A stretch of DNA of 64,000 bases. Origin: a virus. Under the pieces are notes generated by a model. That model was not told the DNA's origin. It worked only from the letters and a program-made list of their open reading frames with translations, and ran no database searches. Positions 1,693-7,017 of this stretch are shown here, piece by piece (position 1 is the stretch's first letter; each line of letters starts with the position of its first letter). The stretch spans positions 16,763 through 80,762 of the IMG/VR virus record IMGVR_UViG_3300032323_001070; one strand, 5' to 3'. The position numbers and the translations under genes were made by a program.

Positions 1693-1706
1693 AATCCAAA
1701 AAAAGA

Positions 1707-1712
1707 TAAATA
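1707..1712 (+). promoter_or_regulatory. T4-type late promoter core TAAATA
   Basis: GATAAATA in an intergenic region; the same motif recurs before most structural genes. Confidence 0.65.
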
Positions 1713-1717
1713 TCATT

Positions 1718-1896
1718 AACAGAGGCAGATCAACCTTTGTTCTATTCCTGTGGTAAACCAGCATAGAGCCCCTGGGCTGAAAATTCGGTTAACGGTGAAA
1801 CACCGGGTATTAAGGAGAGCTCATGGCTATTGGTCGCATTTCGGGGCCGCTCTTAAAGGCGAATCTCGTCCGTGACGGGGTAGATCTGGCCTTTGA
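1718..1896 (+). ncRNA. putative structured cis-regulatory RNA leader extending into the CDS
   Basis: Consecutive hairpins at 1718-1741, 1742-1766, 1767-1778 and 1793-1805; SD pairing 1815-1820/1849-1854; further stem 1853-1896. Confidence 0.45.
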
Positions 1897-3633: not shown

Positions 3634-6600
3634 ATGGCTGAGTTTAAACTAGGTAGAATTAAATTTGTATGGAAAGGTGCATGGGCAGCGAGTACAACAT
3701 TCGTCAAAGATGACGTCGTAAGATATGGCGGTAAGTCATATGTTTGCGTAGAGGGACACACCTCAGGAATCGCCGCTGGCGGCTTCGAAACTGCTCTAAC
3801 AGCAGGAAGATGGAGCTTAATGACCGACGGTCAAGCATGGAATAGTAATTGGGCCACTGGCACATACTACAAAGTCAATGACGTTGTGAGATATGGCGGA
3901 CGATCATATATTGCTAACACATCGCACACATCTGCTGCTACATCAACACTGGGTCTTGAAAACGACCAATCTAAATGGGACATTTTCAATGACGGTATTG
4001 CATACGCTGGTACTTGGTCATTCCCAACACGATTTAAAGTAAACGATGTTGTGGCCTACGGTGGACAGCTTTACATTTGTACTACACATCATACCAGTTC
4101 TTCAGTATTCGCAACTGGGAATTTCGCAGTGTTTGCAACTGGTTTACAATTTGAAGGCATATATGACAACGCAACAAGCTATCAGCCAGGCGATGTTGTT
4201 GTCTACGGCGCAAACAGCTATGTAGCGATCCAAACAACTGTAGGTAATTTACCAACCAATCCTAGTTTTTGGTCAGCAGTAACACAGGGTGTACAATATA
4301 GATCAACTTACAGCGGTGCAACAGCCTATAGAAAAGGCGATATTGTAGCCTATGGTGGATATACCTATGCAGCCAAACAAGACACCACTGGCAATGCTCC
4401 TACCGACGCTGCAAATTGGGATCTATTAAACAAAGGTTATACATTAATCGGTGCTTACAGCGGCGCCACAGCATACAAGCCAGGTGAATTAGTCACTTAT
4501 GGTGGTAATGTCTACGCTGCAAAAACAGACACTACAGGAAATTTACCAACCAGCACAGCACAATGGGATGTATTCACCAAAGGCCTTAACTGGTTAGGAA
4601 CATACAGTGCAGGTACAGCATATGCCCCAGGCGATGTTGTAAAATACGGAGCAAGAATATTCGTTAATATCCAAGCTGGCACAGGAAATCTTCCAACTAA
4701 CGTCAGCTTCTGGAACGTGCTTAACGACGGTGTTCGCTCTGCAGGTACTTACGCAGACGCCACAGAATATCTAGTAGGCGATATCGTACGCTATGGCGGT
4801 AGAAGTTATATCTGTATTCTAGGCCATACATCAAACAATGCAACTAACATAGAACCTCCAAATGCCACATACTGGCAGCTACTAGCAGCAGGTATGAATT
4901 GGAGAGGCAACTACAGTGCTGTTACAGAATATGAATTAGATGATGTTGTTAACTATGCAGGTAGTTCTTGGATCAGTATCGACAACGATAACACAGGAAA
5001 TCAACCAGATGCTTCACCTTTAAGATGGGCATTGGTAGCACAGACTGGTAACTTATCACCAATCCTAACTACCACAGGTGATACTTTCCGTTACGGTGCA
5101 TCAGCAGTTGAAAGATTGCCGGTTGGACAAGAAGGACAAATTCTTGTTGTAAACAACAATTTACCTCGTTGGGAAGATAACAACGAAACTAGAAACGTTT
5201 ATTATGTTACACCAGAAGGCAGCAACTCTAATGATGGTTTATCATATAACAGAGCATTTGCTTCAGTTAGATATGCCTGCACACAGGTAAGAGGTGCTAA
5301 CTTTACCGGCTCTATCAGCGGCACTACTTTAACTGTAACACTGGTAACATTAGGAACATTATCAGTAGGACAGGTAGTCTACGGTACAGGTATAGCACCT
5401 GTGAGAATTGCTTCTTTTGCTAGTGGTTCTGGTTTGACAGGAACATACAATTTAGATTCTGCAAGAACATTTTCAAGCGGCTCACTAAGATCAGCAAGAC
5501 CTGCTACAATCTATATCAAGGCAGGAACATACACCGAAACATTGCCTATCGTTGTACCAGAAAGCGTACATATCATTGGTGACGGACAGAGGAATACCAC
5601 AGTCCAACCAGCCAGCGGTGTTAGTGCTGACGGTTCAACTTTAAATACTCGTTCAACAATGTTCTTGATGAGTGATGCCAGCATGTTATCAGGTATATGC
5701 ATGATAGGCATGACTGGTTTTGCGATCGGTGCAAGCCCAAGCAATATCACAACATCAACTGTTGGTGGAGTATTTGTGGCATTTAACCCTGACAGTCCAA
5801 TATTAACTAAGAGCCCTTACATTACAGATTGTTCAGCTTTCTCATCAGGCGGCACTGGTGCTGTAGTTGATGGTTCATTACACTCAACTGGAAATAAATC
5901 AATGCTGTTCCATGCATTTACAAACATCAACGACAACGGTGTAGGTTTCTGGGTATCAAATGCAGGTAGAGCAGAAATTGTTTCTTGCTTTACATACTAC
6001 TGCGCATTTGGTTATGCAGCATCAGAAGGCGGTCAGATCCGTGCGTTGAATGGTAACTGCTCATACGGGGAGTATGGTGCAGCCAGCGTGGGTTTTGATC
6101 CTTCAGAAACCCCAGTAACTGCGGCGTTGTATGGTCAAGAACTTAACTATCTAATTGAAAATGGCGAGTTCGTTAGCAGCGAGATTATCACTGGACAAAG
6201 CTCAGGTGCAACAGCACGAGTATTAATCAATCAACCTTCTGCTAATAAACTGTACTTTAAACAAGTTACTGGGTCGTTTACATCTGGTGAAGTTATTACC
6301 GGCGGCAGCGGAGCAAGAGCTACGGTTAATGCGGGCATTGGAGTAGCTGGACAGAAAGGATTTATTTTAGTAGTTGACGGACTAACAGAGGAACCAAGAG
6401 CAGGTGGATCTATCACTATCGCAGGTGATGCAGTGTCATACGTTATCCAATCTGTGTCTGAGTATACTGCTGTTCCTGCAACTTATAAACCAGCAGGTTT
6501 CGCGATCATTGTGTTAACTAACGAAAAAGGAACTAGTTCGGCAGAAGACGCAGCAACTACTATCAGATACAAATATAGTAAAGTACGCTTAACAGGACAC

Positions 6601-7017
6601 GATTTCTTAAGTATCGGAACCGGAGGCATAGCTACAACTAATCATCCAAACGATCCGATCCAAGCTCCGTCGCAGGCTGACGAGGTTATTGAATTGTTCC
6701 CCGGACGTGTATTCTATGTATCAACAGACCAAGACGGTAACTTCCGTGTTGGCGAATATTTCCGAGTTGACCAAGCAACAGGTACTGCTACTTTGAATGC
6801 TAATGCGTTTAACTTGGCAGGTTTGAGTTCGTTACGATTGGGTTCGATCGGTGCTCAATTAGGAGCAACGATTAACGAATTCTCAACAGATGAAACATTA
6901 AGCGGAGCGTCTAACACCGCAGTTCCGACAGAATTTGCAGTTAAGACATATGTAGACAACAAGAGTAGTGAAACATACTTGCTGAATCTTGCAACGTCAG
7001 TGGCATTCGGCGCATAA
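3634..7017 (+). CDS. large virion protein with tandem CBM5/12-like repeats and a pectin-lyase-like beta-helix region
   Basis: About 9 repeats of (W/Y)xxxTxYxxGDxVxYGGxxY, followed by a YYVTPEGSNSNDG..TIYIKAGTY beta-helix signature. Confidence 0.75.
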   Translation: MAEFKLGRIKFVWKGAWAASTTFVKDDVVRYGGKSYVCVEGHTSGIAAGGFETALTAGRWSLMTDGQAWNSNWATGTYYKVNDVVRYGGRSYIANTSHTSAATSTLGLENDQSKWDIFNDGIAYAGTWSFPTRFKVNDVVAYGGQLYICTTHHTSSSVFATGNFAVFATGLQFEGIYDNATSYQPGDVVVYGANSYVAIQTTVGNLPTNPSFWSAVTQGVQYRSTYSGATAYRKGDIVAYGGYTYAAKQDTTGNAPTDAANWDLLNKGYTLIGAYSGATAYKPGELVTYGGNVYAAKTDTTGNLPTSTAQWDVFTKGLNWLGTYSAGTAYAPGDVVKYGARIFVNIQAGTGNLPTNVSFWNVLNDGVRSAGTYADATEYLVGDIVRYGGRSYICILGHTSNNATNIEPPNATYWQLLAAGMNWRGNYSAVTEYELDDVVNYAGSSWISIDNDNTGNQPDASPLRWALVAQTGNLSPILTTTGDTFRYGASAVERLPVGQEGQILVVNNNLPRWEDNNETRNVYYVTPEGSNSNDGLSYNRAFASVRYACTQVRGANFTGSISGTTLTVTLVTLGTLSVGQVVYGTGIAPVRIASFASGSGLTGTYNLDSARTFSSGSLRSARPATIYIKAGTYTETLPIVVPESVHIIGDGQRNTTVQPASGVSADGSTLNTRSTMFLMSDASMLSGICMIGMTGFAIGASPSNITTSTVGGVFVAFNPDSPILTKSPYITDCSAFSSGGTGAVVDGSLHSTGNKSMLFHAFTNINDNGVGFWVSNAGRAEIVSCFTYYCAFGYAASEGGQIRALNGNCSYGEYGAASVGFDPSETPVTAALYGQELNYLIENGEFVSSEIITGQSSGATARVLINQPSANKLYFKQVTGSFTSGEVITGGSGARATVNAGIGVAGQKGFILVVDGLTEEPRAGGSITIAGDAVSYVIQSVSEYTAVPATYKPAGFAIIVLTNEKGTSSAEDAATTIRYKYSKVRLTGHDFLSIGTGGIATTNHPNDPIQAPSQADEVIELFPGRVFYVSTDQDGNFRVGEYFRVDQATGTATLNANAFNLAGLSSLRLGSIGAQLGATINEFSTDETLSGASNTAVPTEFAVKTYVDNKSSETYLLNLATSVAFGA

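Follow-up and report, generated by a model that had tools for sequence, protein, structure and literature searches.

The window analysed here is a stretch of 64,000 nt from an 80.8-kb IMG/VR sequence of an uncultured T4-like phage, and genes for tail sheath, tail tube, terminase and UvsX are present in the record. Near the beginning of the window, a gene at 607-1692 is followed by a gap of 130 nt (1693-1822), after which the next gene starts at 1823. The first-pass annotation, whose quoted sequences were all found in place when checked on the window, had called this gap unusually long, and with neighbouring gaps of 2, 12, 11, 45, 25, 69 and 23 nt it is the longest locally. The features of the gap and of the beginning of the downstream gene are collected in Table 1.

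The gene downstream of the gap encodes a fibre-like virion protein of 350 amino acids, for which 211 homologous loci were confirmed in IMG/VR. A look-up by protein language-model and structure in the ESM Atlas gave as nearest neighbours viral clusters with PTL_trimer, Mtd_N and Laminin_G_3, and modelling by AlphaFold gave a poor result (pLDDT 65). The gene adjoins tail-fibre genes: one, at 3634-7017 of the window, encodes a tail fibre of 1127 aa in which a pectate-lyase-like segment accompanies six carbohydrate-binding repeats of the CBM5/12 type, and another encodes a giant fibre of 2698 aa. Searches of INPHARED (GenBank phage records) for near and distant relatives and at the protein level gave no match or short domain matches only, and cultured relatives of the leader gene were found neither in these searches nor among the 146 gene starts described below. 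The gene upstream of the gap (607-1692; MSQLGRISGPLL...; MSQLGRISGPLLLNNLLRDG...) is a paralogue with the same N- and C-terminal modules and no leader. It is coupled to the ORF at 101-604 and starts 3 nt after that ORF. The first codons of the fibre-like gene had been described as GC-richer than the rest, and the first 78 nt indeed have a GC content of 56% compared with 39% in the remainder, which places them in the top 0.4% among 78-nt windows.

The gap carries a T4-type late promoter core, and its TAAATA is invariant among the aligned leaders of relatives (49/49 and 93/93). Transcription presumably starts near 1718, a position assigned by analogy with T4 late promoters. The ATAAATA of this promoter precedes its ATG by 117 nt, whereas the remaining plus-strand copies in the window are found 12-33 nt upstream of gene starts. 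Late leaders in this phage thus appear to be very short as a rule, and the one studied here is the sole long late leader of the window. The ATAAATA motif is under-represented in the window, with 12 copies compared with 22.9 expected. No terminator-like or sigma-70-like sites were found between 1500 and 2000, and no tRNA was found. In a metatranscriptome run (X1) short contigs from close relatives cover 1734-1884 and none lies over 1300-1701; these data are contigs only, with DNA carry-over possible, and inform on neither the start site nor expression.

Table 1. Features of the leader and of the adjoining coding region, in window coordinates.
Feature	Position	Strand	Remark
Late promoter core ATAAATA, T4 type	1706-1712	+	predicted mRNA 5′ end near 1718
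Further ATAAATA sites	3601, 7014, 16174, 20485, 26479, 37419, 57089
P1, 5′-terminal hairpin AACAGAGG / CCTTTGTT, loop CAGATCAA	1718-1741 (1718-25 / 1734-41)	+
P2, TGT with GCA	1749-51 / 1761-63	+	pseudoknot 5′ strand lies in its loop
H-type pseudoknot helix, AACC with GGTT	1756-59 / 1787-90	+
Insert hairpin AGCC-CCTG-GGCT	1767-1778	+	within pseudoknot loop 3, long forms only
P3 hairpin CGGTG-AAA-CACCG	1793-1805 (1793-97 / 1801-05)	+
Shine-Dalgarno (SD) region AAGGAGAGC, 2-nt spacer, ATG	1812-1825	+
Gene for fibre-like virion protein (MAIGRISGPLLK...), 350 aa	1823-2875	+	candidate controlled gene
K, P1 loop GAUCAA with codons 3-5 UUGGUC	1728-33 / 1830-35	+	putative long-range pairing
GCTCTT	1849-1854	+	candidate anti-SD partner of GAGAGC 1815-20
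H5, putative coding hairpin TCTTAAAG (codons 10-12) with CTTTGAGA (codons 23-26)	1851-58 / 1891-98	+

To the 211 homologous loci, further gene starts were added with a codon-neutral N-terminus pattern, and the pooled set comprised 146 non-redundant MAIGRI(S/T)G gene starts. Class A leaders, of which there are about 97 including that of the window, have in order the late promoter, P1, P2 with the pseudoknot, P3, GGAGAGC and the ATG; the long forms, among them the window, have an additional hairpin in loop 3 of the pseudoknot. In the 17 class B leaders, which precede GSVLKSNLTRNG genes, P2 with the pseudoknot and P3 come immediately after a terminator and a late promoter, and an AU-rich spacer separates them from the SD. 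Class B leaders therefore carry the core without P1 and without the contact between the P1 loop and the codons. The terminator in class B (loci L085, L094, L099, L100, L127, L131, L137, L140, L149, L154 and L160 among others) is strong, the AU-rich spacer reads CUAACAUUAUUAUAAAGGAG, and the core lies at the 5′ end. Class B phages also have two paralogues, 3-5 kb apart, and the pseudoknot leader is found on one of them only. Class C is a small group of leaders on GAMLKANLERLG genes (loci L176, L118, L158, L096, L116 and L159) with a P1-like hairpin followed by ACCCGGGCUCACCCAGGAAUGAAUAGAGGUGGAGGAG; here CACC/GGUG versus ACACC/GGUGU resembles covariation. Several subfamilies of MAIGRI(S/T)G genes are without any leader. 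In some class A relatives the same leader and N-terminus occur ahead of genes of 550-1200 aa, suggesting a 5′ cassette that stays constant while the fibre modules behind it are shuffled.

The leader model gave a single copy in the 80.8-kb record and one per phage record. Over about 0.9 Mb of DNA from related phages, the class A and class B models matched only leaders of this fibre-like family. When the class B model was applied to class A leaders the matches were marginal (E 0.15-0.65), yet they were in the correct place every time.

Folding of the single sequence was no better than that of shuffles (z of −1.0 for 1693-1900 and −0.5 for 1718-1822), so that the reality of the structure could be decided only via comparison with relatives. 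A covariance model built from four seeds was used to align 93 class A leaders. In this alignment 93.4% of the cells were paired, compared with 78.3% in column shuffles (0/500) and 31-51% with slid partners, and the covariation score was 0.39, whereas shuffles scored 0.14 and slid partners 0.04-0.09. The class B leaders were aligned by MAFFT with no structural fitting, and the core was paired in 94.9% of the cells, compared with 76.7% in shuffles and 29-51% in slid controls; the values per helix were 100% for P2, 95% for the pseudoknot and 92% for P3. The frequent occurrence of G-U pairs argues that the constraint acts on the plus-strand RNA and not on a repeat at the DNA level. Comparison of the homologous leaders, in which covariation is strong, strongly supports that the gap holds a genuine folded RNA composed of P1, P2 with the pseudoknot, and P3. 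At the level of sequence, the same comparison establishes this fold, its conservation and its restriction to this fibre-like gene family.

P1 forms a hairpin in every homologue with a sequence that differs each time: all ten modelled pairs change on both sides, 87-97% of the cells are paired, and the family loop motif is GACCA(A). P2, which was outside the covariance model, keeps three pairs with the pair types UA84/AU8, GC92 and UG76/CG12/UA4, and a fourth pair is restricted to the short forms. The pseudoknot helix is paired in 98.9% of the cells and all four pairs change on both sides, giving the variants AACC/GGUU, AGCC/GGCU, CAACU/AGUUG, UACC/GGUA, GGGC/GCCC and GGAC/GUCC. This helix was recovered unaided by RNAalifold from a plain MAFFT alignment, with 0 broken pairs, and for one of its pairs six out of six tree-independent contrasts were in the same direction (p ~0.03, using a tree of the downstream proteins). 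In P3, which is 7 bp long in class B, four of the five pairs change on both sides (CG46/GC46, CG59/GC24, UA45/AU23/GC9). Unpaired positions of the core are conserved as well, namely AC before P2, GU in loop 1 and A-A/U-N-G after P2. At the site of the insert hairpin the short forms read AUGUAAGGU, and the long forms have hairpins that vary in length and sequence (AGCG..GCU, GAGCCGU..ACGGCU). Loop 3 of short-form leaders (e.g. L058:3455-3465) reads AUG-UAA, a start-stop, or AUG CAA GGU GGU UAA, which long forms, the window among them, do not have.

Several stems that the first-pass annotation had read from the single sequence can be recognized in this structure. The AACAGAGG/CCTTTGTT hairpin (P1), the CGGTG/CACCG hairpin (P3) and the AACC/GGTT pseudoknot are supported by the homologues, and AGCC/GGCT was correctly drawn as a hairpin, although it is an insert limited to some lineages. 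The CTAT/ATAG and TGG/CCA stems were not retained since they are not conserved and clash with the pseudoknot; the conserved stem is TGT/GCA.

The structure may extend into the coding region by two pairings, K and H5, for which the alignments are suggestive only. K, in which the P1 loop would pair with codons 3-5, was outside the model and is paired in 94.1% of the cells, compared with 91.5% in shuffles (0/500) and 2-59% in slid controls. Two separate lineages (L022 and L179) have undergone a double change in which GACCA with GGU-C became GUCCA with GGA-C, the double change to ACCUA with AUA-GGU has one origin, and in one clade the loop motif is lost and the codons read GGA AGA. Single changes in the loop core preserve a wobble pair (GAUCA twice, GGCCA three times), and the end pairs are loose. 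With only 2-3 independent events a tree-aware sign test on K cannot reach significance. Codon 4 is GGT in 73 of the 82 sequences and GGA, GGG or GGC in paralogue classes without P1. The segment facing the P1 loop is +8..+13, inside the ribosome footprint, and K, for which independent compensations are few, is the best candidate for a contact with the ribosome site; it had been missed in the first-pass annotation.

For H5, 94.0% of the cells are paired compared with 90.5% in shuffles (0/500), and 28 double-change cells were observed where 8.1 were expected. The tree-aware test of the change from TTA/TTT to TTG/TTC was not significant because events are few and G-U intermediates are common. Two nested stems had been proposed in this region, of which the outer one stands in the H5 register and the inner one (ATCTCGTC/GACGGGGT) is not conserved. 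Codon usage was evaluated as a codon-entropy ratio for the 223 columns with a conserved residue, which had a median of 0.89. The lowest ratios of the whole gene were those of codon 10 (CTC, 0.15), codon 9 (CCG, 0.23), codon 4 (GGT, 0.30) and codon 25 (GAG, 0.34). The synonymous constraint suspected in codons 1-25 is thus not uniform: it is in excess at codons 3-4, 8-11 and 25, whereas codons 5, 7 and 13-23 vary freely. This codon-specific pattern supports both K and H5. The gene's strongest synonymous constraint, at codons 8-10 (1844-1852, GGG CCG CTC), is explained only partly by the supported helices.

The SD motif GGAGAGC is nearly invariant within class A, and its AGC is probably dispensable for pairing with 16S rRNA. 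The GGAG at 1814-1817 starts about 22-23 nt past the 3′ strand of the pseudoknot, which ends at 1790, and P3 lies between them. A translational switch had been proposed in which GAGAGC would pair with GCTCTT in the gene. The two segments are complementary in 88% of the cells, which is not above shuffles, and show no covariation; since both are nearly invariant, covariation cannot arise. The calculated duplex energy of −9 to −11.7 kcal/mol is only a modest improvement on that of shuffled SD regions, and the complementarity of variant SD regions to GCTCTT is no better than chance. As a candidate, this pairing would explain the leftover constraint on codons 8-10. In nested-fold ensembles the SD and the AUG were about half open, a result that is uninformative on accessibility. 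What stands of the proposed switch is a leader that reaches into the fibre gene, whereas the SD pairing that would form it is without covariation support.

In our preferred reading, which we give about an even chance of being right, the leader acts in cis to control the initiation of translation, as a brake or as an operator. The transcript would begin about 5 nt past the late promoter and fold at once into P1, followed in order by the H-type pseudoknot (P2 and its loop paired with GGUU), P3, the ribosome-binding site and the hairpin in codons 10-26. Pairing of the apical loop of P1 with codons 3-5 would close the whole leader as a ring, with the loop/codon helix sitting within the footprint of the 30S ribosome. 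In this way the leader would hold down or gate the synthesis of one fibre paralogue, and the terminal 5′ helix would additionally shield the mRNA. We infer that the effect of the leader is to lower initiation. A GC-rich, paired start region lowers initiation in bacteria, and the composition of the first 78 nt of the gene, being the opposite of one that favours initiation, argues for initiation control. Against this reading, in class B the core occurs without P1 or the contact and must therefore have a role of its own. Moreover, the pseudoknot appears too elaborate and too conserved for a plain brake, which hints at a trans-acting partner.

The conservation of the core across two subfamilies suggests that something recognizes it, which makes a protein-binding translational operator the main rival. 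The P2-pseudoknot-P3 core would then be bound by the fibre protein, by an assembly partner or by a general repressor, and the ribosome site would be blocked or opened as a result, in the way of T4 gene 32 or the leaders of ribosomal-protein genes. This would fit a core that is kept across two distant gene subfamilies with differing surroundings, that is restricted to this fibre-like gene family, that has conserved unpaired positions and whose complexity seems to go beyond the needs of passive tuning. However, the fibre-like product has no known RNA-binding domain and an entire hairpin can be inserted in loop 3, and we consider an operator of this kind unlikely.

Terminal 5′ helices are known mRNA stabilizers, and in classes A and B alike the first helix begins at the eighth nucleotide past TAAATA and lies some 2 nt from where the 5′ end is predicted. 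It could accordingly be that the terminal hairpin or the pseudoknot serves only to guard the message against nucleases that depend on the 5′ end, with no direct role in initiation. Any hairpin would suffice for this purpose, however, and the conserved pseudoknot, the P1 loop and the constraint on codons 3-4 and 8-11 would be left unexplained, so that stabilization as the sole function is quite improbable.

The compactness of the H-type pseudoknot, its A-rich loop 3 and the conserved bases at its junctions, a short way upstream of the ribosome site, would fit a riboswitch for a small molecule, of the general type of preQ1-I or SAM-II. We regard such a riboswitch as very improbable because searches up to E 10 matched no riboswitch model of Rfam, the pseudoknot ends 22 nt short of the SD instead of containing it, loop 3 accommodates the hairpin insert, and the gene encodes a virion protein and not a metabolic or transport function. 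It is hardly credible that the late mRNA is trimmed at its 5′ end by a self-cleaving ribozyme or a processing signal: small ribozymes are abundant in phage metagenomes and the topology of the pistol ribozyme, in which a hairpin loop pairs with the strand just before a second hairpin, is loosely similar, but no Rfam ribozyme model matched, the P2 helix of pistol has no equivalent here and, as a weak point, an RNA-library contig is unbroken over 1734-1884.

A bolder reading, in which the leader would be a switch of a new class, would divide it into two functional parts. The core would be a sensor or aptamer for a phage or host factor, such as an intermediate in the assembly of baseplate or fibre, or a small molecule, and the helix between the P1 loop and codons 3-5 would be the expression platform. 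Translation of one fibre paralogue would thereby be coupled to the assembly state of the virion, a tentative proposal that we consider unlikely.

With respect to described RNAs, Rfam 15 gave 0 matches at gathering score in the whole window and 0 at E up to 10 in 1650-1950. Two homologous leaders (L058 and L160) gave only chance matches or matches to terminator hairpins far below gathering. The claim in the first-pass annotation of a new cis-acting structured leader that is no known riboswitch is thus in agreement with the strong covariation, the zero Rfam matches and the codon constraint. We conclude that the leader represents an RNA family absent from Rfam and undescribed in the literature, of the kind of structured translational leaders. 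The late genes of T4-like phages share one simple promoter, and how the amounts of virion proteins are made to differ is largely unknown. Here about a hundred uncultured aquatic phages share a large, deeply conserved RNA fold, which is attached to a single family of genes for fibres or baseplate attachment. The leader offers a handle on post-transcriptional control of host-recognition proteins, and constitutes a new structured RNA family for Rfam.

Among known pseudoknots that control initiation on one mRNA, those of E. coli rpsO (S15, RF00114) and the alpha operon (S4, RF00140) enclose the ribosome-binding site. The leader of the window differs from both in that it gives no match to their models and would comprise two nested pseudoknots, a local one formed by P2 and the pseudoknot helix and a long-range one between the P1 loop and the codons. 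Unlike in the H-type riboswitches preQ1-I and SAM-II, the models of which likewise do not match, the SD is neither within the 3′ strand of the pseudoknot nor abutting it.

Two further systems are from phages, and the leader belongs to neither of these leader families. In the maturation-gene 5′ UTR of the levivirus MS2, long-distance pairing keeps a low-copy virion protein scarce; an upstream strand pairs with the SD region and works by way of a kinetic trap on the replicating RNA genome, in which a metastable hairpin holds back the inhibitory fold (PMC4615214). The window has in common with MS2 that a phage virion-protein gene is preceded by a multi-stem 5′ leader with a candidate long-range pairing to its own initiation region. 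It differs in that the pairing is between a hairpin loop and codons 3-5, on a late mRNA of a DNA phage, and the pairing that involves the SD is without covariation.

The leader of gene 32 in T4 and RB69 is an autogenous operator in which a 5′ pseudoknot of about 28 nt nucleates binding of the repressor beside the ribosome site, and next to the pseudoknot the operator has over 40 unstructured nt in which UUAAA/UAAA repeats occur and which take in the ribosome site (PMC535899). The gene downstream is fibre-like in our case and does not encode a single-strand binding protein, and there is no sequence similarity between the two leaders. Between pseudoknot and SD the window has P3 and 6 nt (GGTATT) without UUAAA repeats, and it has an extra 5′ hairpin, the loop of which would pair with the coding region. 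Both systems nevertheless belong to T4-type phages, and in both an H-type pseudoknot lies at or close to the mRNA 5′ end, ahead of a single gene's ribosome site. In class B the pseudoknot lies about 2 nt from the predicted 5′ end and an AU-rich stretch precedes the SD; in the window the pseudoknot follows P1. By analogy, the T4 gene 32 operator would be the functionally closest known system, and the one that the leader described here probably works most like.
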